From Eledone cirrhosa (taxonomy: Eukaryota), in contig OZ024743.1 in the NCBI GenBank assembly GCA_964016885.1, positions 241,118,001 to 241,182,000 of the forward strand: a stretch of 64,000 bases of DNA, given 5' to 3'. A program made the translations under genes and the position numbers. Below are positions 1 through 54,023 of the stretch, piece after piece. The notes under the pieces are model-generated. The model saw nothing but the letters and a program-made list of their open reading frames with translations. It did not search any database and was not told the origin of the DNA. Every line of letters starts with the position of its first letter. Within the stretch, counting starts at the first letter, position 1.

Positions 1-2763
1 GTCCACAATTTAAAATAGTCGACTACACAAACCACAAATTTGTGATCTGTGAGATCAACATAGACAGACTTCATAGACAAGGGCCTGGTTACTGGAAGCT
101 GAACGCGTCTTTCCCGGAGCGTAAAGCCTACAGATTAGCGTATTAGTTAAGTGGGCGTTGACGGGAGCGTCGTCAACAACAGGTGGTGGTTCGCCCTGAA
201 AAGGGCAATTAAAGTAGAGTCGATTAGGTTTAGCAAAGGAGTAGTGATAGAGGAAAATAGAGTAGAGGGAGAGCTAGTCAGAAAGCTAGAAGAGGCGTTT
301 AGGACAGGCACGCAGCCGACGTGCTTGCGGCGAGATTGGCACTCGACAATTCTTCAACGCAAAACACGAAGGCTGCGTTGTCAGAGCTAGAGCGCGTGCT
401 CTGAAACACGAGGGGACAAAAGCCGTCCAATGGGCCCGGTTGGCAGAGGCGCGACGTGGCAACAAAGCCACAATTCGGTCTTTGTCTGACCAAAACGGGT
501 GCGTGATTCTCGAACCCGAGCGGATATGTGAAGCTTTTCAGCAGCACATTGCTGAACTGTTCGGGAGCGGCGGTGGCCCGGATCGGGGCATGCACTTCAG
601 TGCATACCTCGACGGAGTGCCTCGGCTCTCGACGACCGCAGCACAGTGTTGCGAAAAGCCAATAACAGCCGGTGAAATACGGGAAGCGATGGCTAACTGC
701 ACAAGGGGTAAAGCGCCAGGTTTAGATGATCTGCCCTACGAGCTTTATGCATTTATGCCGGACTTGTTTGGTGATCTCTTGGCAGACGTCTACTGAAACT
801 GGCAGCAGAACGGGAGCATTCCCAGTTTTGTGAGCCGGGGAGCAGTAGCGCTGCTGAGAAAAGACCCGAACAAGGGTGATGTTATCGATAATTTCAGGCC
901 CATAACCCTGCTAAACGCAGAGTTCAAGATTTTGGCCAAGGTGTTAGCAACGAGGTTGGCGCTTGTCGTCAAAGGTCTGGTGAGAGAGGCGCAGACATGC
1001 GCCATTCCGGGCAGATCCATACACGACAACCTCCATCTCATGCGATACATCATAGAGAGGGTGGTTAAGGAACCTGGCACGGGTGGGGCCCTGATCAACT
1101 TGGATCAATCCAAAGCATTCGATAGGGTCGACCATCGGTACCTGGCGGCGGTCCTCGAGGCAGCCGGTTTCGGGCCCGTTTTCAGGGGTTGGATCGCAGC
1201 AATGTACAGCGACATCTGCTCAGTTGTGAGGGTGAACGGTCTCCTGTCGCAGCCGCTCAGCATCATGCGCTCAGTCCGCCAGGGTTGTCCCCTCTCGTCC
1301 TTCTTGTACGTATTAGCTCTCGAGCTGTTACTGAACAAACTGGGGGCGATGATGGGCGTCCCACGCGAACTAGGATGCGGGAAATCCGAGTCGGCTTACG
1401 TTGACGACGTCACCGTGGTGGTGTTGAGCACCAGACACGTCCAGATCCTCGGCGCCGCTCTCAAGGAATACGAAACGGTGACAGGAGCAAAGATAAACCA
1501 GGAAAAGTCGGTGGGCTTGCAGCTCGGCATCTGGAGAGGCAAGTCCATGCCGTCCGACAGCGTCGTGGGCGTTGGACGGACGGACCGGTTAAATTGCTCG
1601 GGGTTTGGTTCGGACCGGACCTCCAGATGGAGAAAAACTGGAACGAGGTGACGAGCAGAGTGGCCTCCCTCACCCAGAAATGGTCTGAGAGGAAGCTGTC
1701 CCTGAAAGGCCGGGCGGAGGTGGCGAATGCGTACATCGCATCCGTCATCTGCTACCGCCTCACTATCGTCCCATGCTCCAGCCCAAATCTCACCAAAATG
1801 GAGCGCCTGCTCTTCCGCTTTTTGTGGAAGGGACGCGCTCCAATGCTCAGACGATCCATCTGCTGTCAACACCCGTTGCGTGGAGGACTGGGCATGCCAT
1901 GGCTGATGATGCGCAAACATGCGCTGAGGCTGCGACATCTCTGGTGCTTCCTTGATGGTGAACGGGTGTGGTCGCCGTTCGCCAGGCACGTTTTCCCACA
2001 GCTCGTCTCCTTGACGGAGCTGCAGTCCTGGGTCAGAAAAAGATCGAGGGATAGCGCATGGAAACTGGAATGTCTCCAGGCGCTCACTGCCCTCTCCCAG
2101 TTGGGCACCAGTATCGGTGGAACATCCATCTCGGCGTTCTATAGAGGACTAGTGGAGGGGAAGAGCGACGATATTCTCAGAGAGATCCTAGGCGTCGAAG
2201 AAGACCAGCTGTTTGCTCTCTTCCGGAGAACTTTCAGCCCGGGGCCAATGGATAACTTCCAAAAATCCCTGGCCTGGCAGTGCTACCGGGGAGCGCTGCC
2301 GGTTCGAGATAAGCTCTACAGGCACGGAAGTGCCGTCAGCCGAGCCTGTCCGAGATGCGCGCAGAGCGACGAAAACGTTGTGCAGGCACTCGTTCAGTGC
2401 CCGAGCATTGCTGACTTGTGGAGCTATGTCGAACAGTTGCTGTCACGTGTTGAGCTGATGCGGTTGTCGACAGAGTCTATTGTGCAGATGGTCTCACCGT
2501 CTTCCTTCGAGGAGGAAGGGCAGGCGGTTTTCATCTGCCTGGTAGCCATGGCGAAAGAGATTGTGTGGTGGACAAGGTTAAAAGGGTTAAAGACAAACAC
2601 TTTCCTCTTCGGCGAATCCCTAATTAACTTTTTCAAGTTTCACTTGAAGAGGAAAATCAGGGTGGAGAGGCAAGTGCTGCTTTCTAGCAAGTTTGTTGAA
2701 AGGTGGGTGAATGTAGCGAGAATGGTCCGAATGACCGGGACCGCTCTGAATATACGTCTGTAG
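1..2763 (+). pseudogene. Disrupted ORF2 (end of APE domain + RT + C-terminal domain) of Tx1 copy A
   Basis: Collinear with ORF2 of copy B; frameshifts near 135, 320 and 1570, TGA at 794-796. Confidence 0.9.
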
Positions 2764-3053
2764 TTTGAGAGATGGAAAAATTGAGAGAGGGCGCTTGCCC
2801 TGGTGGCCAGGGTGGCCGTGGTCTTTTGTGTGGTTTTCGCCACGAGTAACCCTCGGAGGTTTCTCCCCTATTGGTGAATTTTTCATTGTTTCAATTTTCA
2901 TTTTTATTGTTTATATATATATATGTTTTATGTCTTTTTTCTTTTCTTATATAAATAATAAAAATATTTACACGCACAAAACCCACATCGTACCGTCCTG
3001 TTCCGTCTGTGATGTTTTTCTTGATGTCAGCCTTGTGGCCAATAAAGAAATCA

Positions 3054-3085
<32 letters not shown>
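1..3085 (+). mobile_element. Tx1 (L1-clade) non-LTR retrotransposon, copy A (divergent subfamily); 5' part lies outside the window
   Basis: Broken ORF2 pieces (151-390, 440-796, 830-1651, 1594-2763) with RT motifs NFRPITLLN, LDQSKAFDRV, QGCPLS, YVDD and a C-terminal CPRC zinc-finger remnant; 3' UTR ends AATAAAGAAATC-(ATT)n. Confidence 0.93.
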
Positions 3086-3301
3086 GAATGCCATGGTTGA
3101 CGGAGGCTCGGCTCTGTAAGGTATAGTAATTTTTAACCGTTAAAACAATTGTAAATTGTTTAAAACTTGAACCAAATTGTTGATAAAGACACCCTCCTCC
3201 TCGTGAGAGGGGTCTTTCTGTCCGTTATTTGGCCCTTCGGGGTTAAATAACCAGTTATTGGGGTTTTGTACCCAAAATTTCATTTTAAACAAAAAAACAA
3301 C

Positions 3302-5397
3302 ATGGCTACGAAAAAGAAATTTCATACGTCACTCCCACTCATTCCGTCTTCTTCTTCCTCAATCATCACTACAGCAGAGAGAAGATTGTCTCTCTCCCTC
3401 CCTTCTTTAAATGTGTCTCTCTCCCTCCCTTCTCTTTCGCAAGTGACGAAAGAAAAGAAAAGTCTCGTGCAAAGCGTGCAAGGTTTCTCCACGACGACGA
3501 CGACAGCGACGAAACAGGTGTGCGGGAAATACGAAAACCCAGTTCATTCGTCTGACGTCAGGAATAATAGCAGTAGCAGCCGTAATAACAACAGCAACAG
3601 TGACAATGAAAACAACAGTAGCAGCCGCAACAGCATCACCAGCAGCATAAACAACAACAGCATTAGCAGCAGCAACACCAACAACAACCACAGCAACAGC
3701 GGCGGAGGCAGTAGTCGTAGTACCTGCAGCAACAACAAAAGTACCAGCAGCTCTGACGACAACAACAACAGCAGAGAAAAACCAATCTCATTTGCAGGTA
3801 TTGCGAAAAACTTGGAAACAATCCTCATAACAAATGAGGAATTAGAGGAAGCGAAGAAGATGGTGACAAAGAACGGACACCGAGCAATCTGCAAGGCAGC
3901 GGAAAAATTTTTCGAAACCCAAGAGCACTGTACGGTCACGTACCGTACAGTAAGTACAAAATCCCGTAGGGTGGAAAGAGCCACAGAGGCTCAAATACAA
4001 AAAGGCTTGGGGTCTGTGTGGCAGCGGAAAACGCACATCACCCGAGGCAAAAAATATGCCACCGTAGACGTACTTTTTTCCACACCCCAGGAGGCAAAGG
4101 CCCAATCAGTAGTGACCCTAAGGAGCGAGGAAATGGTGTTGGTGCCCTCCTACTGCGGGCAAAAAATTGTGAGGGTCAAACTGACCCACGTCCCCCCCGG
4201 AATGACCCCTTCTTGGCTGGCCGTGTCTGTCCTCGTCGGAATGGAGGACAAAACAACTGTACTGCAAGTACAGAAAAAAGTAAGAGAAGATTGGGTCGGC
4301 TCCTCCATTGAGATGCTAATCCAAACCAACCAGGAGTGCATCGAAGCTATCCCGGATGTAATAGACTTCGATAACGGCACTCAACTGCCCATAAGTGTTG
4401 AGGGCAAACGCCCGAAATGCTTTCGCTGTGGATCGAAGACTCACCTCAGGGCCTTCTGCAACGAGAAGACCCTGAGAAAGGAGAAAACCCCCCTACTTCC
4501 GAATCCGGCTCCACGGCTACCAGCAACAGGACAAGCGGCAACCAGGAACGATAGGCCCGTGGCACCCATACCCACTCCACGGAAATCAAAAACAGCAGCA
4601 GCAGTGGAAACACTAACAACAACAAATGCAATACCAAATGCAGCTGCAACAGAGACTCCAGTGCAAACATCACCAACAACAACAAGTGAAAGAGTGGAGC
4701 TGGTACCCCTCCCCGACCTCACAGAATCAGACATGGAGTGTGAGGTGGGAGAGAGATGGCAAAAGGTCGTAAGAAGGCACAAACGCAGAAGCAGCGCATC
4801 GTCGCCTTTGAAAAGGGAGGAAAGAAATGAGAAAAGGGTAAAGTCTACTGCAAAGAGACCCACAGCAGCAACAACACCAACACCATCACCACCCACACTA
4901 GCACCACCATCACCACCGGCGACAACCCCACCGCCAACAACACCTTCAACACCACCACCACAAGCACCAACATCGCAAACACAACAACAAAACACACACA
5001 CCCAGCAACAACGACAAGAAAATAGCAGAACCACACCCACCCCCAGAAAAACAAATGCACGGCAATAAATACACACAACAAGAAACTAATGACTTACATA
5101 ATTGAACACACAGACATTTCACAACAGGACTACATAATACCAGCACCAATCAAAACGCCAACTAACATAAGACTGCTAAAAATAGCACAGAAACAATACA
5201 CAAATATTAAAACGAAATTCCCCAACGCAGTTGGTGATTTCAGGGACCTAGGAGGAACCATCAATCGAAGAGTATACTCAGACATTCTCTTAGAAGAGCC
5301 GACGACCAGCCGAAGGGACGATTCAACGGTCCCTTCACCAGACGATCAAGTGAAAAGGGATGTAAAAACCATCCCTCCTCTACCAAAAGTACGGTAA
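3302..5397 (+). pseudogene. Tx1 ORF1 (gag-like, CX2CX4HX4C zinc knuckle), one frameshift near 5035
   Basis: CFRCGSKTHLRAFC knuckle; ORF 5089-5397 (MTYIIEHT...) is continuous with ORF1 in copy C (ORF 57449-58708), so the stop at 5066-5068 results from an indel in a C-rich run. Confidence 0.85.
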
Positions 5398-5432
5398 GTG
5401 GTCTTTCCCATCTTTTCCACTCTATTTTAAAC

Positions 5433-8400
5433 ATGACCTCACTCAGAATAGGCAGCATAAATGCGCGTGGCTTGGGGTCGTCATGGAAGCAAGGTCACCT
5501 GCTCAACGACCTCATGTCACTAAACGTAGATGTAGTGGCCATCAGCGAGACCAGAATCTCCGAAGCACGGGCCTTCGCACCGATCTTCGGCGGCTACGAT
5601 GTGTACGCATCTCCCAGCCGTCCTGGATCCGGTGGAGGAGTTGCTGTGCTTTTTCGGAGAGGTTTGGATCTCGCCATACGGGCCATCTTCCTGGACCCAG
5701 AGGGTAAGCTGGTGGTGCTGGACGTGACCAGCGGAGACGGGCAAGCTTTCAGGCTAGTGGCCGTCTATGCCCCGACAGGAGCAGGCCGGCTTGATTTCTT
5801 CCGGCGTCTGGAGACCTTTCTTGGAACGTCCCGCTCTTTAGTGTTAGTGGGCGACTGGAACGGGATCTTAGATACACGCAGGGACTGTGTGGGATTAGCG
5901 GATAGGGGTGGAGGGTGCAAGAGCCTCACCAACCTGCTCAGGCGTTTTGAACTGTCTGACAGGTACCGATTGGATTTCCCGAATGTGCCAATGTGGACTT
6001 GGACAAACCGCATAGGGTCATCCAGATCATATCTAGATAGAGTATTTTGTAGGGAAATAGATAGGTCTAGCATAGGCTGTCCACAATTCAAGATAGTCAG
6101 CTACACGGACCACAAATTCGTGATCTGTGTGCTTGACTTAGATAGGCTTCATAGACGAGGACCCGGCTACTGGAAGCTAAACGCGTCCTTACCAGCGCGC
6201 AAGGCCTACAGAGACCGGATTAGCGAACTAGTTAAGCGGGCGTTGACGGGGGCCATCGTCAACAACAAGTGGTGGTTTGCTCTGAAAAGAGCGATTAGAA
6301 TAGAATCGATTAGGTTTAGTAAGGCTTTAGCAATAGAGAAAAATAGAGCAGAGGGAGAACTAGTTAGAAAATTAGACGAGGCGCTTAGCAAAGGCATTGC
6401 GACCGACGTGCTTGCGGCGAAATTGGCCCTTGACCAATTCTTCAATGCAAAGCACGAAGGCTGCGTTGTCAGAGCAAGGGTGCGTGCTCTCAGACACGAG
6501 GGGACGAAAGCCGTTCAATGGGCCCGAGTGGCGGAGGCGCGTCGTGGCAACAAAGCCACGATCCGGTCTTTGGTGGACCACGACGGGCGCATGCTACTCG
6601 ATCCCGGGAAAATGTGTGAAGCTTTTCAGCGACACTTCGCTCAGCTGTTCGGGGGCAGCGGTGGGCCGGGTAGAGGGATGGACTTTAGTGTCTACTTCGA
6701 CGGACTGCCGCGGCTCTCGGCCACTGAGGCGAAGTGTTGCGAAAAGCCGATAACAGCCGCTGAAGTAAGGGAGGCAATGACTGGCTGCACAAGGGGCAAA
6801 TCGCCTGGTTTGGATGTTCTGCCCTATGAACTTTACGTACAGATGCCAGACTTGTTCGGAGGCCTCTTGGCGGACGTCTACTGCAACTGGCAACAGAACG
6901 GGAGAATTCCCAGTTCTGTGAGCCGAGGAGCGGTGGCACTGCTGAGAAAGGATCCGAACAAGGGGGATAACATAGAAAATTTCTGGCCCATAACTCTGCT
7001 AAACACAGAGTTTAAGATTTTGGCCAAGGTGCTAGCAAAGAGGTTGGCGCTTGTCGTTGGTGGTCTGGTGGGAGAGGCGCAGACATGCGCCATTCCCGAC
7101 AGATCCATCCACGACAACCTCCACCTCATGCGATACATCGTAGAGAGGGTAGCTAGGGAACCTGGCACGGGTGGGTCCTTGATCAATTTAGATCAGTCGA
7201 AAGCTTTCGATAGGGTCGACCATCGTTACCTAGCGGCAGTCCTGATGGCGGCTGGCTTTGGGCCCGTCTTCAGAGGCTGGATCGCTGCCATGCACAGCGA
7301 CATCTGCTCTGTGGTGAGAGTGAACGGTCACCTGTCGGAACCGTTCAACATCATGCGCTCGGTCCGCCAAGGATGTCCCCTCTCGTCCCTCTTGTACGTA
7401 TTGACTCTCGAGCCATTACTGCACAAACTGGAGACGTTGAGGGGAGTCCCGCGCGAACTAGGATGCGGAAGATCCGTGTCAGCATATGCGGACGATGTCA
7501 CCGTAGTGGTGTCGAACGCCAAACACATCGAGGCGATCGGCACTACACTAAGAGAATACGAAGCGGTGACAGGAGCAATGATCAACCAGGAAAAGTCAGT
7601 GGGCCTGCAGCTCGGCACCTGGAGAGGCAGGTCCATGCCGTCCAACAGCGTCGTCGGACGCTGGACGGACGGACCGGTTAAATTGCTAGGGGTCTGGTTC
7701 GGTCCGGACCTCCAGACGGACAAAAACTGGGACGAGGTGACGAGCAGGGTGGCTTCTCTCACCCAGAAATGGGCGGAGAGGAAGCTATCCCTGAAAGGTC
7801 GAGCGGAGGTGGCTAACGCGTACATCGCGTCTGTCATCTGCTACCGCCTAACCGTCGTACCTTGTCCTAAGCCTCGCCTGACTGCGCTGGAGCGTTTGCT
7901 CTTTCGCTTTTTGTGGAAGGGACGTGCTCCGATGGTCAGGCGGTCCATCTGTTGTCAACACCCGCTACGTGGAGGGCTGGGCATGCCGTGGCTGATGATG
8001 CGCAGGCACGCGCTCAGGCTACGACATCTCCACCTCTTCCTCGACGGTGATCAGGTGTGGTCGCCGTTTGCTAGGCGCGTATTTCCCCAGCTCGTTTCCT
8101 TGACGGAGCTGCAGTCCTGGGTCAAGCGAAGACCGAGAGGGAGCGCCTGGAGACTGGAATGTCTTCAGGCGCTCACAGCCCTCGACCAATCGGGCAATGT
8201 GATCGGTGGAAACTCCACCTCGGCGTTCTATAGAGGATTAGTGGAGGGTAAGAGCGACGACGTACTTGGGGAAACTCTAGGCGTCGACGAAAATCAACTA
8301 GCCAATCTCTTCGGAAGAACTTTCGGACCGGGGCCTATGGACAATTTCCAGAAATCTCTGGCCTGGCAGTTCTACTGAGGAGCCTTGCCAGTTCGGGATA

Positions 8401-8852
8401 AACTCTACAGGCATGGAGGTGCCGTCAGCCGGGCATGTCCGAGATGCGCTCAGGGCGACGAAACCGTCCTGCACGCACTCGTCCAGTGTCCGAAAATTGC
8501 TGACTTGTGGGTTTATGTCGAACACCTGCTGTCGCGTTTAGGACGGATCCGGCTATCATCTGAGTCCATCGTGAGGATTGCCCCGCCCTCCTCCTTTAGC
8601 CGGGAAGGGCATGCAGTTTTTATCTGTCTGGTGGCCATGGCGAAAGAGATAGTATGGTGGACACGTTTGAAAGGGCTGAAGACGAGCACTTACCTCTTCG
8701 GTGATGCTCTGATTGACTTTTTCAAATTTCATTTGAAAAGGAAAATCAGAGTAGAGAGGGAAGTGCTCTCTTCCCAGCATTTTGTTGAAAGATGGGTGAG
8801 AGAAGCAAGAATGGCCCGAGTGAATGGGCCTACTCTGAGTATATATCTGTAA
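5433..8852 (+). CDS. Tx1 ORF2: APE endonuclease + reverse transcriptase + C-terminal CCHC; 1139 codons with a single internal TGA at 8376-8378
   Basis: APE motifs SINARGL, ISET, VGDWN, YLDR, TDH; RT motifs QGCPLS, YADD; CPRC-X8-H-X4-C; ORF 8385-8852 is in the same frame; copies A and C have Arg at the stop position. Confidence 0.93.
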
Positions 8853-9111
8853 ATTAAAGGTGGAAAACTGGGAGAGGGCACTTGCCTTGGTGGTCAGGGT
8901 CATTGTGGCTTTTTACTGGGCTTTCTCCACAAATGTCCCTCCGAAGTCTCCCCCCTATTGGGGAATTTTTCATTGTTATTTTCATTGTTATTTTTGTTAC
9001 ATCCTCTGTTTTTGTTTTTTACACGCAGAAATGCCCATTTGTACCGTCCTGCATTGTCCTGCACTGTCCTTAATGTCTACTTTATGTAAACCCTTGTGGT
9101 TAATAAAGAAA

Positions 9112-9164
<53 letters not shown>

Positions 9165-9171
9165 ATTATTA

Positions 9172-9371
9172 GGGTGGTGGATTGGCAGTATCAGTAGAGC
9201 GTCAGACACTATGCTTTGTGACATAGAGTTGTGGCCCTTTACGTTCTGAGTTCAAATCCCACCAAGGTTAACTTTGCCTTTCATCCTTACGGGGTCGATA
9301 AAATAAAGCTCCAGTAACGCACTGGGGTAATTACAGGCCTTGTGCCTAAAGTAGAAACATTTATTATTATT
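9172..9371 (+). mobile_element. tRNA-head SINE with Meta/MESC-like core and (ATT)n tail
   Basis: A-box-like TGGCAGTATC-GT, B-box GAGTTCAAATCC, core GCCTTTCATCCTTACGGGGTCGATAAAATAAAG, tail CCTTGTGCCTAAAGTAGAAAC-(ATT)n; many similar copies in the window. Confidence 0.9.
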
Positions 9372-10465: not shown

Positions 10466-10652
10466 AGGGCAGTGGATTGGCAGTATCGGTAGAGGGTCGG
10501 ACGCCATGCTTTGCACCACAGTTACGGCCCTTTACGGTCTGAGTTCAAATCCCGCCGAGGTTAACTTTGCCTTTCATCCTTACGGGGTCGATAAAATGAA
10601 GTCCCAGTAATACACTGGGATAATCGCTGGCCTTGTGTCAAAAGTAGAAACA
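10466..10652 (+). mobile_element. SINE, full length, with 13-bp target-site duplication
   Basis: Same family as 9172; TSD ATTATAATCCCGA at 10453-10465 and 10653-10665. Confidence 0.92.
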
Positions 10653-11398
10653 ATTATAATCCCGATTAGCACACAATTCGAACTCGGCATCATACCCTTC
10701 GAGCATTGATATAAACACAATTATCTTTATTTATTCTGTCTGAGTTCCTCTACATGACATCAGATGCCCTACAAAATACTATTATTAACTACGATAACAT
10801 CAATACATCCAAGCCATATACAACTACTAACCAAATCGGCAGAATAAGAAACACTTTGATGTACCTAAAACATCCAGACAGTGATAAAAAGCTATAAACT
10901 TTAATCCATTTAAAGAACAAATAAATTTTTGCGACAGCAAAGCCAATTACAGCAATGCTAACCACAAAATATGTATTGGTTGTAACTGTAACCAAAATTT
11001 CCATTCCTCTCTCTCTGTACATCTTGGTTCTTCTTCTATCTCTCAGTACATTACAATGCAACTGCTATATATACAACCGACTTGCTATGCGATGCTGCAA
11101 CCTATTAATCTCGCTCTATATATTATAGACACCCTGTATAAATATAAACATTGTTAAATTCTGAGGTGCCAATTTACCACGGTATTGTCGCAAAATATTG
11201 GAAATTGAATTTTCCGATATATCCTATCGGACTAGCATTTTTAGATTTTGTTTACCTGTAGATTGGCGAAACACCTGTCAATTATATAGTAAATGTTAGT
11301 CCTTTAACTGTGAAGTTGTCATATTCATGTTACTGAAAGAAGTCATTTCTATATTATATATATATATATAATATATATATAATATAGATATAATATAG

Positions 11399-11437
<39 letters not shown>

Positions 11438-11708
11438 TATAATATAGATATATTATATATATATATATATATATAATATAGATATAATATAGATATAATA
11501 TAGATATATTATATATATATATATATAATATAGAAATGATTTTTTTTCCTGCCGGCAGCATATCATAAAATCGAATTTCATCTGAGGATAGCGTTCTCAT
11601 GAGAGCAACAAATGCATAAATTACATCTTGATTGCATGGGAAAAACGTTGAAATAATTATAATGAATAAACGATTTATGTAATATCACCATCTTTATTAT
11701 TAATATTA

Positions 11709-11895
11709 TGGTGAATTGGCAGTACCGGTAGAGGGTTGGAATCCATGCTTTCTAGCATAGTTACGTCCCTTTACGGTCTGAGTTCAAATCCCGTCGAGGT
11801 TAACTTTGCCTTTCATCCTTATGGGGTCGATAAAATAAAGTACCAGTAATGTACTGGGTAATTGCTGGCCTTGTGCCAAAAGTAGAAACAATTAT
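11709..11895 (+). mobile_element. SINE, full length
   Basis: Same head, core and tail as 9172. Confidence 0.9.
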
Positions 11896-12811: not shown

Positions 12812-14716
12812 AGGTCTGTGAGTGCCAGGTATTTTGTCAGCTCCAAGATCTTTTTCAGGAGGAGGCGATGGTTCACAGTGTCGTATGCAGCCGACAGATC
12901 AACAAAGACGGCTCCTGTTACCAGTCCTTTCTGAAACCCATCTTCAATGTGCGCTGAGTGAGATTCAGGAGTTGGTTTGTTGTGGATTTGCCAGGTCGGA
13001 ATCCAGCTTGTTGGGGGATGATGGCTGGTTCAACAACTGGGTCCAACCTGTTGAGGATCAGGCGCTCAAACAGCTAAAACGGGTGGCATAGCAGGGAGAT
13101 TGGGCGGAAAATCTTTGCATGCGCTGGATCTTTATCCGGATTGAGAAGAACAATAATTCTGGTTTTTCTCAAGATCTTTGGGATGTTTCTTATCAACATG
13201 CAGTTGTTCATCAGCTCAAGGATCCATTTCCGTGTCAGAGGTCCAAAGTGCTTGATCTCCTCTGTAAAAATATTATCTAGACCGATGGCTTTACCAGTCT
13301 TAAGGGCATTGATGCTGATATTGAGCTCTTCAAGCGAGAACGGCTTAGTCAGTCCGGGAGTTTGGGAGTACTGAAGTCTGTCTACCTTTGGTCTTGGCTG
13401 TTTGGTGGTGGATTTCCCATTGAGCAACATCTGATATGCAATTTGGTTGGCGATGATGGTGTACTGCTGTTGTGTTGGAGTTGACGGGTCGTTGCTGATC
13501 TTCCGGATTAGACACCATTCCTTTTACTGTTTTTCGTCATATCACTTGTCTCCAACAGGTTTTGCCATTTCCGTTAGCGGTATTCTGATAGGGAGGTCAT
13601 GAGTCCCTCACCTACTTTGATGGTACTTTCAGCAAAGGGGTCAGATTCATAGAGCTGTTGGTATTGCTCATATAGTTCTCTGCTTTGAGCATCGAGTCCA
13701 AGAATGTATTGAGTGCGGCAGCCTCTTGGGATGTTCTTCCGATCTGCTTGGTGTACAAACTTGGTGAAGTTATCGTAGTTTTGGGGGTCCACTGGGAGGT
13801 GAGCAATCTTCCTTTCAAGATCTTCTTGGAAGCCAGGCCATTTCGCTTTCCCAAAGTTGAATCTTCTTCGGAATGGAACTGTGGCTGGGGTGATTACAGT
13901 ATTGACTGTAATGCCAATGGGGCGGTGTTGGGTTTTTGGCAGTGGCACCAGTACCAGCTTCTTGCTCAGTCCGGTGATGTTATGACTGACAAACACGATA
14001 TCAGGATTGTAACCTGCTTTCCATCGTCCGCTGTTGAAGGACTTTGGTTGTTTGGCATCGTGGATCAAATCAAGCTGGTTGCTTTCAGCCCATGCTTCCA
14101 CTGCATCTCCATCTGCATTGTTATTAGCATATCCCCATTGTGTGCTGTGGCTGTTGAAGTCTCCGATCACAATCTTTGGTTTTCCAGATGATGGTATTTC
14201 TGCCATCACGAGAGGTGTGGGAGGTGGTTTGTAGACTGAGGTGCTGGTAATTCCTCTGAGCTCAGCGGTTAGGACTTCGATGTTATTATCATCGTTCTTT
14301 GATGATGATTCGATGATTGTCCTATTTTTTTGCTAGCATGATGCTTCCATATTTCTCATGTGGTCTTTCTATGAGAGTGGTCATTCCTTCCACATGAGGG
14401 CGGGGATTTTTAGCTCCACGGTGGGTTTCTTGTAGGCATAGAATGTCACACTGATGCTCTCTGCAGAGTTTTGCAACAAGTTCTTATTTAGTTGCAGATA
14501 CTCCTTCAATATTTAGAGATATGATGGTCAATGCTGGCCTTAAAGGCGGGCGTTGGACTCTCTTCATGCTCCGGACTGGTAGGCTACCGTCATTCGTTGA
14601 GCTTCTGGTCATTGCTTGTCTTTTGGCTCGGCTTTGAAGTGTTTGGTAGAATTCGCAAGTAAACGTGGGTATTACTTGACAGGGAACGTGCCGTGAACGC
14701 TTCTACCTTGATCCCC
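12812..14716 (-). mobile_element. Vingi (Ingi-related) LINE: 5' end + APE + start of RT, 3' half lost
   Basis: LNIEGVSA..DILCLQETHRG..RP..ERPHEKYGS; GDFNSHS; SFNSGRWKAGYNPD; PFRRRFN; FRPISLLCH; NHRLLL; stops and frameshifts present. Confidence 0.8.
14645..14716 (-). ncRNA. HDV-like (CPEB3-type) self-cleaving ribozyme at the 5' end of the Vingi element
   Basis: GGGGATC-AA-GGTAGAA-GCG-TTCACGG-CAC-GTTCCCT-GT-CAAGTAA-TACCCACGT-TTACTTG-CGAA-TTCTACC = P1, J1/2, P2, P3, L3, P3', P1', J1/4, P4, J4/2, P2'; G1-U wobble; P2 and P4 are perfect 7-bp helices; catalytic C present. Confidence 0.9.
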
Positions 14717-15913
14717 GTGGGACAGCTGGGGTCAGTGGGACAGCTGAGCTCGAAAGAAACACTGGATCCAGAAGGAGTGTCCCATTCATGAGACTCTGGA
14801 AGCAGACATGCCAAATATTGTTAATGATCAGCCGAGATACAATTGTTTTCCCACCACTACATATGAAGCTGGGCTTGATGAAGCACATGAAAGCATTGAA
14901 TACTGATGGTGAATGTTTTCAACATATAATCTCTGCATTCCCTGCTTTGTCCTTCGAGAAGATTAAAGCAGGTGTGTTTGATGGACCTCAGATTTGTGCT
15001 CTTGTGTGTGATGAGGAATTTATCGGAAAGATGAATGACAACGAAAGGTCAGCATGGCTTCATTCGTGGCAGTTATACAAAATTTCCTAGGTATCAGAAA
15101 AGCAGATGACTATGAAATACTTGTAACTAACATGTTATCAGCTTTTCGTTATCTAAGGAGTAAAATAAGTGTCAAATTCCATTTGCTACATAGTCACCTT
15201 GATCAATTTCCTGGGAATCTCGGGGCTGTTAGTGGGGAGCATGGAGAGCGCTTTCATCAAGACATCAGAACCATGGAAGAGTGGTACCAAAGCAGATGGG
15301 ACAAAAATATGATAGCAGTCTACTGCTGGAGGATTAAGCGAGATTGCTATGGAAAAGTCCACAAGAGCTACAAGTGCAAATTCTTGCCTGAATAAGATCT
15401 ATTTTTGTTTTGCCTTCAATACTATTCATTTTCTGACCTAGCTATATTAATTGTATATAACGTATATTTTCCACTGAAAAACAGTACACACACTTATTAT
15501 AACGGAGTTATGTTTCTGTATTGGAAAATGGTAACATTTATCGGAATATAAATATTTTTATAGCCTAATTCTTAATGTGGTGTACTAACTCATATTTATG
15601 AATATATCTAGAACCTCAATGCAAAGATATTTGTTTTTCAGGTATTATGAAGATGGTATAACCATAAAATGTTCAGATGGATCACATCAGCATAGGCGAA
15701 ACATTCAAATTCCGGAAAATATAAAACAATCTTAATTGCAAAAATTTTGAGCTATCAGAGGAAAACTAACTTCATATTTGAGTTCAGTACACTCAAATTA
15801 GGTAACATCAAGTATCAGTATCAATGCACAAAAATTGTTGTTGACCAGTAATATTCAAAGAAAAAAGAACTTCGATTGTTTATGATATGATCGGCGGGTG
15901 ATTAGTGTTGTTG

Positions 15914-16559: not shown

Positions 16560-18616
16560 AGTTTGATTTTGTATTTGTTTTGCAATATTTCTTATCTGAA
16601 AGTGTGTGTTGAAACAGATATAGTTTGGGAGGGTCATGCTGCCAATAAAAATTACACGCACCTCCTAGTTTTCTCCTCAATTTGTTATAAACTTGCTAGT
16701 TGCTTGCTTGTTCAACCTGTGTGTCTGGTTTGTCTTATTAGTTTAGTTCTTGTGTGTATCTGTGTATCTTTAGTTACTAGTTGTCTTGTTGCTATTTCAC
16801 TCATGTTTTTTGTTTAGTTTTGATTGGAATTCGCTTATTTTTGTCGCGTCTGTAAGCAAAACATATGTCCACGAGGAATGGACGACCACTAGTGTCGGCA
16901 TAGCTGGTGACGTAGCTAATCTTTGTATGGTATTGTGGGACAGGTGACCTAAGGAATGCTTACATGAGGACTTTATAACCTTAACTATGTACTCCCACTA
17001 CTTAGATGACATCAATATCATAGTGAAAATAGCCCCGCAGGAGAACAGTCAGGAATGAGAAAAGAACCCTATGGAAAACATCCAGCAAAGTGTCCATCCA
17101 CCAGATTATTAAAGTTACTATAGGCTACCCAACCAAACGCTGCAACAATTGATTACCTGTACTAAACACAGAACTCTGGTTAGAAAACATTTGTGATAAA
17201 ACCCAAATCCTCCAATCGCATTATGTAAAACATATGGCCTCCATTTACTTGATCTACCGAAACTTAGCCATTTGGATAACATGGAAGTCAACATACTAAT
17301 TACGGATTTAGTTAGAGTGATGAAGAATGCGTTCCACAGTTGCAATCCTAAATAATTAGAGAGACACATGCAATACTTTACCCACCGCATGCAGTTTCTG
17401 GCTACAATCAGAGAGAGAGAGGATCAAGGTGTATAAAGGAGTCAGGGCCAAATGGATGAACATTGTAAAAAATGATGCGAATGAGACCTGCTCCATCTAT
17501 GTTGGAATCGATAGCGAGAACTAAGGAGAAGACTAATAAAGTCAACTCACGGTATAAATAACTGTTTCTACTTTAGGCACAAGGCCAGCAATTACCCAGT
17601 GGATTACTGGTACTTTATTTTATCGACCCCGTAAGGATGAAAGGCAAAGTTAACCTCGGCGGGATTTGAACTCAGATCGTAAAGGGACGTAACTATGCTG
17701 GAAAGCATGGCGTTCGACCCTCTACCGATACTGCCAATCCACCGCCATATCTCACGGTATAAATAACAGAGTGTAATGTTAGTCAATGCAACCCCCAGAG
17801 GAGAACTAGTTTACAGATTTAGAAGGGCTCTAGTAAAATTATATATTAAGATGGTAGAAAAACCAGATATTCTTATAAAAGTGCTCATTAGTAGGACATA
17901 CCCTTTTGAGAAAAAACCCTGCACCGATAGAAAATATATAGTCTGCAAATCAAGCCCACAAAACTGAAAAACTAGGAATGTAGTATATAGCATAAGAAGT
18001 ACAGAGTGATCGTGTAGGAATAGCAACACGACTTCTATAGGTGAGACGGCCCGTAGCGAGAACTCCCAGATATCAGAACTCCATCAGTATTCTAGAATGG
18101 AACATGGGGGCACACAAGGGAACATGGAGATAAAAATGATATCGACACACAGAACAGACGCAATGCCCCGACAAATTACAGAAGTGACAATTATAAACGA
18201 ATTCAAACCAAAACTAAACAGAAAACATGAGTGGAATACTAACAACATCACAACCTATAACTAAGGACAAAATAAAGACATACAGAGACATACAGAACTA
18301 AACTAATAAAACAAACCAGGCACACACACATAGAACAACTAGTTGCAAGTAAATAAACGTATAAATAAAACACACACACACACAAACCCATATATTCACA
18401 GCTCACAAAAAACAAGATGGTGTGGGACAGAACAAAGAAGTGACACAAAATAAAAACAAAGTTAGTCACTGAGGAGGTAAAATAATGCGGGACGAAAGAA
18501 CTTTTACCATCATGACAATTAACCACTAAACAACCATCCGGTTATTAAACTAACTGACTGGGAGTTCATAATAAATTTAAGAGAAAACTAACAGGTGCGT
18601 GTGTTTTTATTGGCAG
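16560..18616 (+). mobile_element. Degenerate Penelope-like element: inverted partial pLTR (16560-16830) + RT and GIY-YIG remnants + 3' pLTR (18250-18616)
   Basis: GIAGDVANL, YLDDINI, NVVY..IGETARS, RQITE..KPKLNRKHEWN; 16640-16790 is an inverted match to 18260-18616; degenerate hammerhead at 18465-18507. Confidence 0.8.
17563..17746 (-). mobile_element. SINE inserted in the Penelope-like element, 17-bp TSD
   Basis: TSD CTCACGGTATAAATAAC at 17546-17562 and 17751-17767. Confidence 0.92.
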
Positions 18617-19993: not shown

Positions 19994-20545
19994 AGTCTAC
20001 CTAAATATACGGTAGTGTCCAATCCGTATGAAGAACTCAATGTAATCCAAATATAGAAGATATCATGAAAAGAGAAGATACATTCAAAAATTTACGATAA
20101 AAATCATAGGAAAACAGAGTCAAGATAAATTAATAATTACAATGAAATAAACACAAAGAACAAGTTCTTTTTATTAAAAAATTCATCATTTTACGATCGT
20201 TTCTGGGATGTATATGTGTGTTGGTATGTATATCATATAGATCTATGTAAACATATTACAAATTATCAGAGGAAACATACATGCCTTCACATATACATGC
20301 CGTCCTCAAAAATGATGAGATGTGTTTATTGAAAAAAAACAAAAAAATTAATATAAAGGAACAGGCTTTGAATTGATCAATAGAAAAGAAGTTAGAGGTC
20401 AAGTTGATAGAATGACAGTAGTAGAGATTAAATCTAGTGGTATAGGAGTGCAGATTTATGCTTTGAATGAAAAGAATACTGTGGAGATGAAATGAGGTCA
20501 AGTCAAGAAAATAGTATAGGGTACGCGAAAATTTGATGTTATTAA

Positions 20546-20729
20546 ATAATTGTTTCTTCTTTCGGCACAAGGCCAACAATTATCCCAGTGCATTACTGGT
20601 ACTTTATTTTATCGACCCCGTAAGGATGAAAGGCAAAGTTAACCTCGACGGGATTTGAACTCAGAATGGCAAGGGCCGTAACTCTATGCGTCAAAGCATG
20701 GCGTCCGACCCTCTACCGATACTGCCAAT
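20546..20729 (-). mobile_element. SINE, near full length
   Basis: Reverse complement of the family head, core and tail. Confidence 0.9.
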
Positions 20730-21990
20730 AAAAACGAAGGAAAATAAAATGTTTAAACCACAAGGAATATATAACAAGAAATTAAATTAATTGATAGGTA
20801 TACTTACAGGGATAAAGTTATATTAATCCATATGAATGTGATAAATAAAAACTTGATGTTATTAAAGCATGTTGTTAAAAACGAAGGAAAATAAAATTTT
20901 GGGAAAAGGGTATTAGTGATAAATACCAATCTTATTTAAAACTACAAGGAATCTAAATACATAACATGAAATTAAATTAATTTATAGGTATACTTACAAG
21001 GATAAAATTATATTAATTCATATGAATGTGATAAATAAAGACGTAAAAAGTTAAAGCAATAAAAAGAAAAGATAAATATATGGAAAAACTGAAGTAGATA
21101 AAAAAATTGTTTATAAAGAGTATTGTATCTATACGGACATTGATGATATTAAAGATATTAATTACATTTAATAATCATAGGTATTAAATGTGATAAATAG
21201 CGGATGCGAATAAATGAAGTAGTGTGGTTTAAAATACTTTTAGGAAAAGAGAGCTGTAAGAGGGAAATAAAAATATCAAGTTCTCTGTAGTAAAATACTA
21301 ATTATAGGTTAACTAAATTTAAAAAAACAATTATAATAATTTGTAAAATATAAGAGTAAGGTGTATATTAATTAGGTTTATAATATTTGAAGGTTCTTCT
21401 AATTCTATGAATGCAAGATATACTTAATTCCTTTCGCTTATTTAATAGGAAATCCTTAGATTTCATGATTTCAAAAAGTTCTTGGGAGCATAACCTACAC
21501 TCGTATCTGCTATTTTGATAAGGGGTGGCCCTTTTGAGCACGCTCCAGGTCAGGTTGTAATCGATGTTCTTCTTTCTATAATTATTAATTGTTCCAGCCA
21601 AGGATGTTGTATTAGCTAATGCGGCATTTTAAAAACTATGTTTGTGGGTATTAAATTGGTTAGACGTAGCTCCTATATATGAATGAGTGGAATCCTTAGT
21701 GTTAATTTTACATTTATATACTATGTTATTAATAAGACAATTTCCCTTTAATGGGCAATTTCTTTTGATTCTACAGTTACAACCATTCGTGATTATTATA
21801 TCAGGGGAGTTAGTTAAATTTGGTGTGGAATTTACAGGACATGTTATAGGTGAAGGAGATGGTGGTTTGTTATGGTTTATTTTAGTATTATTATGGTTGG
21901 TTTGATGTGTTGGTGGTATATTTATGTTGTTTTTTACACTCATATGCGTTGTACGCACTTATATTCTGTTGTAAATTTTTGGTAGTGGAG
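20730..21990 (-). mobile_element. 5'-truncated Penelope-like element (Cys-rich linker + GIY-YIG) with AT-rich 3' region
   Basis: CNCRIKRNCPLKGNCLINNIVYKC..YIGAT..HKHSF; LTWSVLKRATPY..CRLCSQE..LLNKRKEL..CIHR; internal ~120-bp duplication (20729-20850 vs 20877-21040). Confidence 0.85.
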
Positions 21991-22627: not shown

Positions 22628-23479
22628 GCAAATAATTGTACACTATGAGGAAAATCAACTTATATCTAACCAAAAACTTATATGTAACCAAACATCATAA
22701 GTAATTCCTCACTATTTTCGACTATGATAGTTCTGCCTTCATTTTTCTTTTTACGTCTGTTTCAGTTGGAATTATTTTCTTCTGAATTCATCTATTTTCC
22801 TGCTATATGTGATATTTTGTTTTCCATTATTATCTTTCCACCAGCCAATTCTAACCATTTCTGCAGAAATCAACTGACGAATTTCTATCCAATTACTTTG
22901 TCGCTACTAATGATTAATGTCTATACATTCTTTATGGGCGCAGGCGTGGCTATGTGGTTAACAGGTTTGCTTCCCATTCATAAAGTCCCTTGTCAGAACT
23001 TACTGTGTGGTATTTTGGGGAATTGTCTTTACCAAGACATTTTATTGAGTAAAGCTTAGTGAGTGAAATTTAGCAGAAGCAAAATTATGTTGAGAAAGAC
23101 TCACTGTTGGATTGTACCTGTAATTCAAAAGTGCAGTATTTTCCCGTATTATGTCCTGTCTATTTGGCCTGGGATTTATATTAAGTGTACACGTGTCTGT
23201 GGAATAGTGAATGGCGTAGAGATTAATTCATAAGTCTGATGTTGAGTTGATCGAATAACTGAATGCTCATTGTCGAATCCAACGAAAAGACATTCTACTT
23301 TCCTTGTAATGAGATGTTGCTTGTTTAGCACAGATTACTTTGACCGATATAAATGGTGCTGTTGCTTGATTGCTCCGTAGAAGGATCACCCAATAAGGAA
23401 TTTTTCATATATGCGATTATAAATAGCCAGGCAAGCGGATACCCATCAACCTCTACCACTGAAGTGAAGATTCATCAAG

Positions 23480-23880
23480 CTTGAGAAGCGGTTCTTGTGA
23501 ACCGACGAGTGAGAATCGATGAGGTGGCGTGTTCTCTGAAAATTAGTCATGGTTCTACATGCGAAATCATTCATGACAAGCTTCGCTTCCGTAAAGTCTG
23601 TACGAGATGGGTGCCAAGAGGGCTTACCGAAGCGCATATATGCAATGGTGTGGAGATCTGTCAACACTTATTTAGCCACTAGAACAATGAATGTGAAGCT
23701 TTTTGGAGAGAAACCAAAAGACAGAGTATGGAGTGGAAGCACCCGGTATCGCCAGTGAAAAATAATATTCAAGACTCAACCTTCCGCAGAAAATGTGATG
23801 CTAACCGTTTTTTGGTATGCAAACGGGCCTATGCTAGAACATTAAATGGAAAAGGGGTCCACCGTCGCGAGTGTAGGGTA
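23480..23880 (+). mobile_element. Mariner transposase remnant
   Basis: NRRVRIDEVACSLKISHGS..IIHDKLRFRKVCTRWVPRGLT (HTH + WVPxxL motif), ETKRQSMEWKHP, MLTVFW. Confidence 0.88.
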
Positions 23881-23892
23881 CAGGAAAATATT

Positions 23893-24197
23893 GCTGGCAG
23901 TATCGGTAGAGGGTCGGACGCCCAGCTTTCCAACATAGAGTTACGTCCCTTACAGACTGAGTTCAAATCACGCCAGATTTGGTGGCCTTGCTGGCCTTGG
24001 CCCAAAAGTAGAAACAATTATTATTTTTTTTTATCATTTGCTTTGCAGCAAAGAGTTATGGCCCTTTGCGTTCTGCGTTCAACTCCCACCGAGGTTAACT
24101 TTGCCTTTCATCCTTACCGGGTCGTTAAAATAAAGTACCAGTAATACACTGGATAATTGCTGACCTTGTGCCAAAAGTAGAAACAATTATTATTATT
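23893..24197 (+). mobile_element. Two tandem SINE copies (first internally deleted, second 5'-truncated)
   Basis: Head + B-box + tail at 23893-24025; B-box, core and tail at 24050-24197. Confidence 0.85.
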
Positions 24198-24199
24198 AG

Positions 24200-25210
24200 T
24201 CTTATATTTAATGCGCATCGGCACAGTAATACTGTGCGCAGCCATGTGTGACTGGATATATGAAGTGTGGTTTTGGGGGATATTTTTTTCTGTTTTCATC
24301 ATTCACATTCGGGTTATTTCTATCTTTAGAAATTTATATTTGGATATATTTTCCATTTCCTTGGTAGATATATTGTCGCCTGTGAGGATTGATACGTCGA
24401 GTAGAAAACATTTTTTTCGTTGTGGTCTTTGACGATAACATCTCGGTAGGCTTTGGTCCCCTGTCTGTGTGTGTTGTCATATCCCAGAAAATGGTTGTTT
24501 TGTCATTCTCAGACAGCTTTTCTGTGTTTGTCTGTGTGTGAGTGTGTGTGTATGTGTATATATATATGTGTGCGTGTGTGTGAGTGTGTGTGTGTGTGCG
24601 CGTGCGTGTGTGTGTGCTATTTGTTTCTGTTGATATTTCATTCATAACTTTGGGATAGCTTCAAGTGTATGTAAATCCTAACTCCTACCATGTTTGTGGT
24701 TATATTCCTTTTTGGTTAAGACTGGGCAACCAGAGATTCTGTATTTAATTGTTTCTACTCTAACTCCACATATTCTGTAGTTACTGTGTTCTGCTTCATT
24801 ATGTACAACTGGTGGTTTCTGGTGAGGAGGCTTTAATCTTGTGCTGCAAATAGAAATCCTTCCGCCTCTGCATTTTATCCAATGCTTGGTAGCCAGGTTA
24901 TGAAGTTTTACTTTTCAACTTCCTTTCTATTCGTTTTTGCGGATATTGGCTAAGTAAGGGATTTTCTCACCGTTTTAACATGGCATGCTGAAGATCTATT
25001 TTCTAGCAAGATTTTATGATTTTCACGATTTCTGTTGTTATGCCTTCTTTTTTTTTATTATTTTTCTCAAATTTATCTGTTAATCCGACTTTTATTTTGA
25101 ATTTGTTGGCATCCTTGAAGACAGAGAACAATGTTTTGTGTTGTTCATGCTTCGAGGCTATTTTTCTTAACTTTCTCTTAACGTTTTTCTTCATCATATA
25201 ATTTTGAAGT
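24200..25210 (-). mobile_element. Old R4/Dong-clade RLE LINE 3' remnant
   Basis: RICGVRVETI..ISGCPVL (decayed CCHC), ENDKTTIFWDM..HTDR, DVSI..KEMEK.SKYKDLEI; split by a (TG)n tract. Confidence 0.75.
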
Positions 25211-31190: not shown

Positions 31191-32271
31191 TTACGAGCAT
31201 AGTACTTGTTAAAAATGACATGGTGTATAGTAAACAATATATATATTCAATTTAATTATTTCTTGATGACAACATTCTGTAAAGACTCTTGAATCCTCGA
31301 TCCAAATCTCTTTATTCCGTAAACAAAGTACGGACCGGACCGTCACCGTATTGGAGAAGACAGACGTTGTTAAGCGTGCGTATGTATGTATGTATGTATG
31401 TATGTATGTATGTATGTATGTATGTATGTATGTATGTATGTATGTATGTATGTATGTATGTATGTATGTGCGCGTGAGGAATCCCAGCAGAACAAAATCA
31501 AAGCTGTCAAAGGGCGAATGAGCTCCACAGATTCAACGGCCATCCACACCAATTATGGAGCAAATGGCCTCACCAACCTGCAATTGGCTAAGCATGATGA
31601 GTAAGGCCACACCCACGGGAGAGGTTAACCTCCATGACAATAACACGTAGCTGACCTGTTATCTTGCCTTGGATGCGCGGATGGAATGGATGATATGTGT
31701 GTAGCACAAGTACGTAGCATTGCCATCTTTATATGCAGATATTTCTTCCCAACTCCCACTGCGGCGGAGGAGTGGCAACGTGTGCAGACTCGACCAATTA
31801 GAGGCACATAGCCACCGATCTATACTTGGGTGTCTCGAGTCTTATTTTAATGTCACTGCACCGTTAAACTGAACAGCATCATGATTCCGTGGTGTCTGAA
31901 CATCCGTTTTGGAGGGCGCACTCTTCACTCACACCACATGGGAAGGGTTCAGAATAGAACCTAAAGAATGACTGCTCAGTCATCAAACTGGCCAGTAACC
32001 TGCAGTTGACGGTGGTTCATAATAGCAGGGAATTCTTTGAAGAAATAGCCGTCTTCTGTAAAGAAGTGGCAGTTATCATGTATGTATGTATGTATGTATG
32101 TATGTATGTATGTATGTATGTATGTATGTATGTATGTATGTATGTATGTATGTATGTATGTGTGTATGTATGTATGTATGTATGTATGTATGTATGTATG
32201 TGTGTGTGTATGTATGTATGTATGTGTGTATATATGTATGTATGTATGTGTGTATGTATGAATGTATGTAT

Positions 32272-34176: not shown

Positions 34177-34304
34177 TATGTATGTATGTATGTATGTATG
34201 TATGTATGTATGTATGTATGTATGTATGTATGTGTGTATGTTGTATGCACCTACGTACTATGTATGTACGAATGTATGTATGTATGTGAGCATGTATGTA
34301 TGTA

Positions 34305-34815
34305 TATTTTTCTGGTTTTATTACGTTAGAAATCCCGCCGAGGTTAATTTTGCCTTCCATCCTTATGGGGTCGATAAAATAAAGTACCAGTAATGTTCAG
34401 GCATTGTGCCTGAAGTAGAACAATTATTATTTCAGTTTTTATCATAGAAACTAGACACTTTAATTAGCATGTAGAAAACTTGGTAAATAAGTATGTTGAT
34501 CTGTGTGTGTTTGAGTATGGGTGTTTTTGCATGTGATGTGTTATGTCTACACGTGCATATGGATCTGTATGTTTGCATGTGAGGTTATTACATGCTGATT
34601 TTCTGAAATGTTTTACATATTTTTGCAGTTCAATTAATGGGCTGTACTTGTAACATTATAGCTTTCCGGTTCTGCTCTTTCTGGTTCTGTGACGCCCAGC
34701 CTCTCAACATTTGTACAGAGGCAGTTAGTAATATATCCCAGAGCCCCAATTACCACAGGTTTGAATCTAAAAGTATAGTCATGGTGGAGTATCTGCAGAC
34801 TCCCCATTAGTCCTG
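34305..34815 (-). mobile_element. 3' fragment of a related R4 element carrying a 5'-truncated SINE (34330-34430, +) in its 3' UTR
   Basis: LQILHHDYTFRFKPVVIGALGY..KICKTFQK homologous to 32494-32700; ends in (CATA)n. Confidence 0.8.
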
Positions 34816-34924
34816 CATATATATATATATATAAAATTGAATTTTAATCCCAACATTGTCACTGTTAAACGATAAGTACATAGTACGAGACGCACCAACA
34901 ATATTTTTCTTTTCTTCTGTTACG

Positions 34925-37148: not shown

Positions 37149-37203
37149 ACAGACACACACACACACACACACACACACAGAGGCACACACACACACACAG
37201 AGG

Positions 37204-37234
<31 letters not shown>

Positions 37235-44034: not shown

Positions 44035-44428
44035 AGGTGGATTGGCAGTATCGGTAGAGGGTCGGACGCCATGCTTTCCAGCATAGTTACGTCCCCTTAC
44101 GATCTGAGTTCAAATCTCGCCGAAGTTGACTTTGCCTTTCATCCTTACGGGGTCGATAAAATAAAGTACCAGTAATGCACTAGGTAATTGCTGGCCTTGT
44201 GCCTAAAGCAGAAACAATTATTATTATTACGGTGATTGGCAGTATCGGTAGAAAGTCGGACACCATGCTTTGAAGCATAGAGTTACGTCCCTTTACGGTC
44301 TGAGTTCCAATCCCGCCGAGGTGAACTTTGCCTTTCATCCTTACGGGGTCGATAAAAGAAAGTACCAGTAATACACTGGGTAAATGCTGGTCTTGTGCCA
44401 AAAGTAGAAACAATTATTATTAATTTAT
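44035..44428 (+). mobile_element. Head-to-tail SINE dimer joined through (ATT)n
   Basis: Two complete copies at 44035-44229 and 44231-44425. Confidence 0.93.
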
Positions 44429-53895: not shown

Positions 53896-54023
53896 TAATT
53901 GTTTCTACGTTAGGCACAAGGCCAGCAATTAACCAGTGTATTACTGGTACTTTATTTTATCGACCCCGTAAGGATGAAAGGCAAAGTTAACCTAATATAA
54001 TAACTGGTATGCCTATAAATATA

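Follow-up and report, generated by a model that had tools for sequence, protein, structure and literature searches.

The repeat-rich 64,000-nucleotide stretch of the Eledone cirrhosa genome analysed here (contig OZ024743.1, positions 241,118,001 to 241,182,000, called the window below and numbered from its first letter) contains long interspersed elements (LINEs) of Tx1-like type and a dispersed short interspersed element (SINE) which end in the same way. Both families share a terminal motif, a (TTA)n target and the potential to pair a small hairpin just before the repeat tail. We therefore propose that the shared end marks a SINE-LINE partnership, in which the Tx1-like element is the partner of the SINE and is recognised through a mini-hairpin, the following AGAAA and an (AUU)n tail (probability about 0.55 in our estimate).

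The first-pass annotation had described a motif, CTTGTG-N8-AGAAA, at the 3' end of Tx1 LINEs, of the SINE and of an R4-type LINE, and all the strings that it quoted are present in the window. The motif has 16 exact matches: three Tx1-like LINE ends, 10 SINE ends, two copies of one R4-like family and one further site at 24838-24856 (plus strand). Only 0.01 matches were expected after shuffling, a control that treats copies of a family as independent in spite of their common descent and is thus not a fair test; indeed, the 16 matches represent no more than two Tx1 subfamilies, a single SINE family, a single R4 family and a stray site. The motif is, as had been claimed, found in most SINE copies (exact in 10 of the 14 with a recognisable 3' end). 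Its terminal position holds for Tx1 (2 nt before the tail in 3/3 copies) and for the SINE, but not for R4, whose two copies carry it 51 and 54 nt upstream of their (CATA)n tail. The stray match is an antisense one that falls on the codons for GFLFAAQD in the ORF of a decayed R4/Dong fragment (24276-25015, minus strand), so that an exact non-functional match exists in the same window and can be used as a chance control. Over 24 nt, this site is identical to SINE ends at 14-16 positions, compared with 14-17 positions for Tx1 ends and 16-17 for R4 against the same SINE ends. Since it is as SINE-like as Tx1 or R4, identity alone cannot separate signal from chance, and position, tail, target and structure have to do so.

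Three Tx1-like copies were found in the window. Subfamily A (1-3052, plus strand) has its 5' part beyond the window and an open reading frame (ORF) 2 in pieces, with a zf-RVT domain; its terminal signal (3029-3052) is followed by an (ATT)n tail (3053-3085) that is also the insertion site of the next copy. Subfamily B (3086-9113, plus strand) is full length, with an ORF1 at 3251-5068 enclosing a CCHC knuckle (recognised by eye) and an ORF2 at about 5433-8852 encoding Exo_endo_phos (the APE endonuclease), RVT_1 (the reverse transcriptase, RT) and zf-RVT, interrupted by one in-frame stop (8376-8378). Its terminal signal (9089-9113) precedes an (ATT)n tail (9114-9171) with a SINE directly after. 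Tx1-C (54150-60065, minus strand; terminal signal 54157-54181) is a decayed but nearly complete copy that has about 94% identity to Tx1-B and (ATT)n on both sides. The best solved match of Tx1-B is human L1 ORF2p (E 2e-49), R2 reaching only E 5e-19, and Tx1-like ORF2 also matches a fragment within a gene model of Octopus sinensis and, at 58%, a protein of Argonauta hians. The homologs found include no named Tx1 reference, and the clade is one that we take to be Tx1 from its domain content. No small nuclear RNA head was returned by Rfam at the start of Tx1-B. Tx1-A and Tx1-B are 80.6% identical over 3.1 kb and differ at 136/379 third codon positions as against 48/377 and 40/379 at the other two, a skew indicating that selection on its own protein has preserved each of the two lineages.

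The SINE is short (about 190 nt), non-coding and dispersed, ends in a repeat tail and has 19 matches in the window. From the end of the motif to the (ATT)n tail there are 2 nt in the three Tx1 copies and in the SINE, with the same register and polarity. In end-anchored alignments, the majority sequence of the SINE is identical to Tx1-A at 19/32 positions and to Tx1-B at 17/32 (p 2e-4 to 6e-3). The first-pass annotation had considered the end of an old SINE variant (47479-47669, minus strand) identical to that of Tx1: this copy does end AGAAATCATTATT like Tx1, but the first half of its motif reads CTTGAG. Compared with Tx1, none of 3000 shuffles scored as high as this old copy, the score taking in a few tail bases. 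Within Tx1 itself, 20 of the last 22 nt are identical between A and B while 36% of third codon positions differ; this conservation has p 0.005 against third-position divergence and 0.06 if a divergence of 25% is assumed for the untranslated region (UTR). Both families insert at TTAT/(TTA)n, and (ATT)n flanks Tx1 in the 2/2 visible 5' flanks and 3/3 3' flanks (a small sample). Insertions are moreover nested: Tx1-B lies in the Tx1-A tail, the Tx1-B and Tx1-C tails contain SINEs, and one SINE has inserted in the tail of another. We considered that the Tx1 "end" might simply be a SINE target site and rejected this, the 5' flanks of Tx1 being (ATT)n and not SINE bodies, and copies B and C having a common family-specific end.

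What had been described as an eight-base spacer appears to be partly structural, as its first bases are complementary to those 5' of the motif and can form a stem around the loop CUUGU. The stems read (U/A)GGC-CUUGU-GCC(A/U) in the SINE and AACC-CUUGU-GGUU in Tx1-B and C, which corresponds to a change from G-C to C-G and another from G-C to A-U, with an outer pair that is U-A or A-U among SINE copies. RNAalifold predicted a 3-bp hairpin over 14 ends, with two of its three pairs changed on both sides. In a four-pair model, 85.7% of the 56 cells pair, compared with 23-55% with slid partners, and the chance that three Watson-Crick pairs flank a random site is 0.017. The Tx1-B hairpin, which is extended by a lower stem CUUUAU/AUAAAG, has a pair probability of 0.86-0.90 and the fold is unchanged in a 103-nt context; the Tx1-A hairpin, GCC-UUGU-GGC with a loop of 4 nt, reaches 0.9 in a 54-nt fold. 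The old SINE variant keeps its GGC/GCC stem with a loop CUUGA. Tx1 and SINE have thus in common a hairpin candidate of 3-4 bp, a loop (C)UUGU, a short linker, AGAAA, 2 nt and (AUU)n.

By analogy with the L2 model (PMC4176376), the Tx1 ORF2 protein would bind the hairpin loop and its APE would nick the strand facing (TTA)n. The 3' end released in this way could then anneal to the UUAUU tail of the RNA, where reverse transcription would start, and such priming would leave the duplications of 13-17 bp. The SINE would have borrowed the Tx1 signal and be copied in trans. Among the proposals of the first-pass annotation, that of Tx1 as the partner LINE of the SINE agrees best with these data, given the 3' register, the (TTA)n tail and its polarity, the nested insertions and a mini-hairpin candidate common to both with changed stems. 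The other proposal, in which Dong-like machinery would carry Tx1 in trans into (TTA)n, is not supported, in view of the APE, RT and zinc finger that Tx1-B has of its own, the protein-level selection on Tx1-A and B, the insertion of the motif-bearing R4 family in (CATA)n and the (TAA)n ends of Dong relatives.

Several observations weigh against the partnership, for which the evidence comes from a single window. The stretch common to SINE and Tx1 is only about 22 nt long at 60-70% identity, shorter than the shared SINE/LINE end of roughly 100 nt exemplified in PMC3747384, and this likeness is not above that of the chance match at 24838. In Tx1, AGAAA overlaps a plain AATAAA signal. Of the 12 SINE copies inspected for target duplications, just two have a clear one, and for Tx1 no duplication can be measured. 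The hairpin was chosen after the sequences had been inspected, so that its controls are inflated; Tx1-A is not paired in the register of SINE and Tx1-B but only in a shifted one, and the covariation amounts to one independent event, given the 94% identity between Tx1-B and C. Because an upstream arm competes with it, the SINE hairpin is marginal and exceeds a pair probability of 0.4 in only 4 of the 10 exact-motif copies; shuffle z-scores of Tx1 and SINE ends range from +1.5 to -1.1, so that fold energy is not significant. Besides, SINE and R4 UTRs resemble each other with p 0.02-0.04 by shuffling, and a single window segment out of 888 scores as high as SINE-R4 for the CCT variant of the SINE (44/888 for the CCA variant). 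Finally, the 3' end of a large Dong family, which is cut at 63971, is absent from the window and was consequently not among the ends compared.

The shortness of the SINE-Tx1 match leaves room for another partner, whose end would lie outside the window: either the large Dong family of 60-64 kb or an element of the CR1, L2, Nimb or RTE type, Tx1 having then taken a SINE-like end by template switching. The Dong family (60092-63971, plus strand) is abundant in the aligned sequencing runs, contigs of two of which depart from the window sequence at 63971 and run on for 200 and 225 nt, and in O. vulgaris 51 Dong-R4 and 80 L1-Tx1 consensus families are listed (PMC13282606). Exchange between elements does seem to happen, since a SINE-tail-like piece appears joined to the Dong 5' region. 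We nevertheless regard an outside partner as unlikely, because the Dong (TAA)n polarity is opposite to the SINE and Tx1 (TTA)n, which means that a nick on the other strand would be needed. Dong-like relatives were taken from eukaryotic contigs in three public assemblies and fall into four types by their 3' UTR, one of which is incomplete; they end in (TAA)n on the sense strand, and in the best-sampled family ATAAT follows 7 of the 10 complete ends and TTATTA none (by eye). The motif is in none of these four 3' UTRs from other hosts, and the RTE-like end at about 27890 is GAAGAC-rich. For the window family itself, the polarity is deduced from a single clue, the (AAT)n upstream of 60092, and would hinge on where the element starts. 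A lower probability still is given to the absence of any common ancestry or signal, the likeness then arising from the (TTA)n target, A-rich ends, the Tx1 AATAAA and chance. Unanchored local alignment to the SINE is indeed weaker (p 0.009, and 0.054 for Tx1-B), fold energy is not significant, and the window holds one exact chance match and three non-family sites that agree at 12 of the 15 positions defined from Tx1 and SINE alone. Such a coincidence would, however, have to produce a register that is the same to the base, the end-anchored p-values, the shuffle result for the old SINE (with its few tail bases) and stems that pair in both families despite different sequences.

The first-pass annotation went further and saw a common recognition signal across Tx1, SINE and R4, be it one RNA signal read by APE-type Tx1 and by R4 proteins with a restriction-like endonuclease (RLE), or R4/Dong machinery moving both Tx1 and SINE. 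R4 does match 12 of the same 15 positions (p 0.002-0.004 per UTR) and the SINE agrees with R4 at 17/24, the four stem differences from the SINE copy with its motif at 9339-9357 being all transitions; moreover, the R4 motif lies in the apex of a real hairpin, as had been noted (14-bp stem, z -2.6 and -2.4). As the SINE-R4 likeness exceeds background in several tests, the match is not certainly chance. Position and structure do not support a common signal: the match is 51-54 nt from the R4 end instead of 2 nt, tail and target are (CATA)n instead of (TTA)n, which also sets this family apart from a stringent SINE partner, and in the mini-hairpin register R4 gives "::x:x:" with a pair probability of 0. 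Tx1 and R4 UTRs align at background level (p 0.17-0.21). An older R4 relative keeps 8/11 motif bases and 7/8 spacer bases with its terminal TAAAACCAGAA intact, although this copy is mostly neutrally decayed and the loss of its motif is thus weak evidence. The absence of the motif from the four other Dong-like families, the autonomous structure of Tx1 and the two related zebrafish LINE proteins that read their own tails only (PMC4176376) point the same way, and we consider a signal spanning the three clades improbable. It is just as improbable that the loop CUUGU with AGAAA has passed among two LINEs, one of APE and one of RLE type, and a SINE and works in all three; if it did, an octopus SINE could use two unrelated enzymes, or clades could swap tails through the SINE. 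The R4 match is not the terminal signal of that family. About even odds are given to a coincidence; a captured and decayed SINE-tail fragment is a possible origin, plausible because the genome is SINE-rich and one SINE lies in the UTR of the older R4, and a functional role is doubtful.

Four R4/Dong-type pieces occur in the window, namely the motif-bearing family, its older relative, the decayed fragment at 24276-25015 and the distinct family at 60-64 kb. The motif-bearing family inserts in (CATA)n and not (TAA)n (regions 32078-34305 and 52306-53095, minus strand), and its last coding codons and 3' UTR are CATA-rich. Its longer copy, truncated at the 5' end (32270-34145, minus strand), has (CATA)n on both sides and a 14-bp hairpin (32305-32355) that contains the motif (32324-32342) 51 nt before the tail; the shorter copy (52349-52911, minus strand) has it at 52405-52423, 54 nt before the tail. 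The older 3' fragment (34300-34824, minus strand, its R4/Dong piece being 34432-34824) is about 71% alike, with a degenerate motif and (TACA)n, and an antisense SINE at 34330-34431 interrupts its UTR. The younger copy sits in the tail of this older relative, and TAAAACCAGAA is terminal in all three related copies. In R4/Dong elements the RT is followed by CRLC..H..SSC and RPDI..D..VEI motifs (by eye), corresponding to a CCHC and a C-terminal restriction-like nuclease without APE, and a profile of Dong homologs matches R2 structures only. In the RT tree, both R4/Dong families of the window group with RLE homologs (100/99) and are separate from the APE elements, although the branch of the (CATA)n family is long and unresolved; the elements are presumably R4/Dong on the basis of their domain content. 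The RT of the 60-64 kb family is 36% identical to that of the (CATA)n family. Its ORF is cut about 20 codons before the expected end, at 63971, where it is joined to other sequence (63971-64000). At its start, 60092-60146 (plus strand) is a divergent SINE-tail-like piece of 55 nt. In one run (X2), which is without depth in the unique flank, one contig spans 60098-61405 unbroken and continues for 193 nt; according to this single contig, the SINE-tail-like piece may be a constant component of the Dong 5' region, perhaps a whole SINE head.

Stringent SINE/LINE pairs are known from the eel (UnaL2-UnaSINE) and the zebrafish (ZfL2-1/ZfL2-2) (PMC4176376; PMC1636434; PMC3747384). As proposed here, a common 3' end comprises a stem-loop and then a short tandem repeat, the stem being read generally and the loop specifically; in contrast to these L2-clade pairs, the present case involves an L1-group LINE, about 22 common nt and a stem of 3-4 bp, and is known from sequence alone. 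The L1-clade pairs of maize, sorghum and Chlamydomonas (PMC3747384) resemble the proposed pair in having a conserved terminal hairpin with a variable, compensated stem that is common to the SINE, but they belong to plants and algae and end in poly(A) or poly(T). L1-group LINEs that share tails with SINEs are rare (3/58 pairs in PMC3747384). In crocodilians, a Tx1 family (Tx1-Mar) was inferred to mobilise SINEU with the shared target preference as a main argument, as here, together with age and shared small nuclear RNA heads, while no Repbase LINE resembled the 3' half of SINEU-1 (PMC4494074); in our case, the 3' end itself is common and the SINE head may be tRNA-like. By their description, Kibi in (TC)n and Koshi in (TTC)n (as cited in PMC4494074) are comparable Tx1-type elements that insert in microsatellites and are nested in earlier copies, the target being here (TTA)n. 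R4-type LINEs can have SINEs with shared ends, as for EhLINE1/EhSINE1 and R4-1_ED/EdSINE1 (PMC3747384); in those pairs the common part is the end of the LINE, whereas the R4 match described above lies inside the element, whose tail is unlike that of the SINE. Octopus SINEs OK, OR1 and OR2 are derived from tRNA (Ohshima and Okada 1994, as cited in PMC4758252 and PMC4824008), and SINEs account for 11.6% of the O. vulgaris genome (PMC13282606). The SINE of the window may be one of these three. In the full-text literature consulted, no partner LINE is named for octopus SINEs, nor is any Tx1 described with a 3' hairpin in common with a SINE; the search left aside subscription papers as well as Repbase and Dfam, whose entries could already record such a pair. 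That an animal Tx1 family with stringent-type tail recognition drives a major octopus SINE is less novel than a signal read across three clades and likelier, and we hold it to be somewhat probable. If true, a Tx1 with a hairpin signal of roughly 25 nt would be an animal case of stringent recognition in the L1 group and would bear on whether relaxed poly(A) recognition is derived. The Tx1/SINE tail is a short RNA target that can be tested directly.

The individual SINE copies are as follows. The copy at 9170-9365 (plus strand, about 190 nt) has a head with A- and B-box-like words (by eye) and a tail AGGC-CUUGU-GCCU, AGAAA and (ATT)n; ARAGORN and Rfam returned no tRNA for the SINE head. The core of the SINE may be Meta-like, and a 13-mer search of one of the two supplementary files of PMC4824008 returned no match. 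Clear target duplications, in unique DNA and starting (A/G)TTAT, are those of the copies at 10466-10660 (plus strand; 13 bp, starting ATTAT) and 17557-17749 (minus strand; 17 bp, starting GTTAT). Duplication length was dropped as a discriminator, none being measurable for Tx1 or R4. Another copy lies at 11705-11895 (plus strand). For the copy at 20545-20729 (minus strand), about 120 nt before the head duplicate nearby DNA (20752-20852 compared with 20936-21042) and a candidate 14-bp duplication lies beyond, 123 nt upstream of the head; this extra 5' DNA possibly reflects template switching at the 5' junction. Two partial copies occupy 23895-24198 (plus strand), the second having the exact motif at 24165. 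At 44036-44420 (plus strand), two copies stand head to tail, the second one lying within the (ATT)n tail of its neighbour, and two copies truncated at the 5' end (53890-54140, minus strand) are nested in the (ATT)n tail of Tx1-C. Where contigs of four sequencing runs were aligned (53300-64000), depth is highest over the SINE. Most of the SINE contigs, seen at 53930-53993, carry an extra internal segment between core and tail that is not in the young copies of the window and resembles the old copy at 47479, so that the main SINE of the window may be a short subfamily.

Searches were extended to other sequence collections. The motif-plus-tail pattern has 32 loci in metagenome contigs, none with an RT match or SINE likeness, and in three assemblies with eukaryotic contigs the motif occurs 10 times against 8 for a reversed control. 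One L1-group element from an assembly with eukaryotic contigs has no motif match better than 3 mismatches. A scan with a SINE 16-mer gave 16 loci, judged to be chance, and no relative turned up in viral contigs when these were scanned with the Dong protein and with the Dong and Tx1 alignments. Many eukaryotic LINE copies are present in three prokaryote genome bins (89, 6 and 17 matches), which corresponds to host contamination.

The window also contains features unrelated to the shared end. At 14645-14727 (minus strand), a ribozyme of the CPEB3 family, similar to that of hepatitis delta virus (HDV), scores 48 bits (gathering threshold 35) and lies some 300 nt upstream of a LINE ORF that encodes an APE (13574-14332, minus strand); HDV-like 5' ribozymes are known in LINEs. 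Decayed transposase-like coding remnants were recognised by eye at 14780-15400 and 23400-23890, the latter presumably Mariner-like. Finally, a 5.5-kb CA-rich minisatellite array with periods of 14, 28, 42 and 100 extends over 37149-42652, and a 508-bp near-perfect palindrome (46135-46642) and a pair of 180-bp inverted repeats about 1.1 kb apart (49915-51352) are possible non-autonomous DNA transposons.

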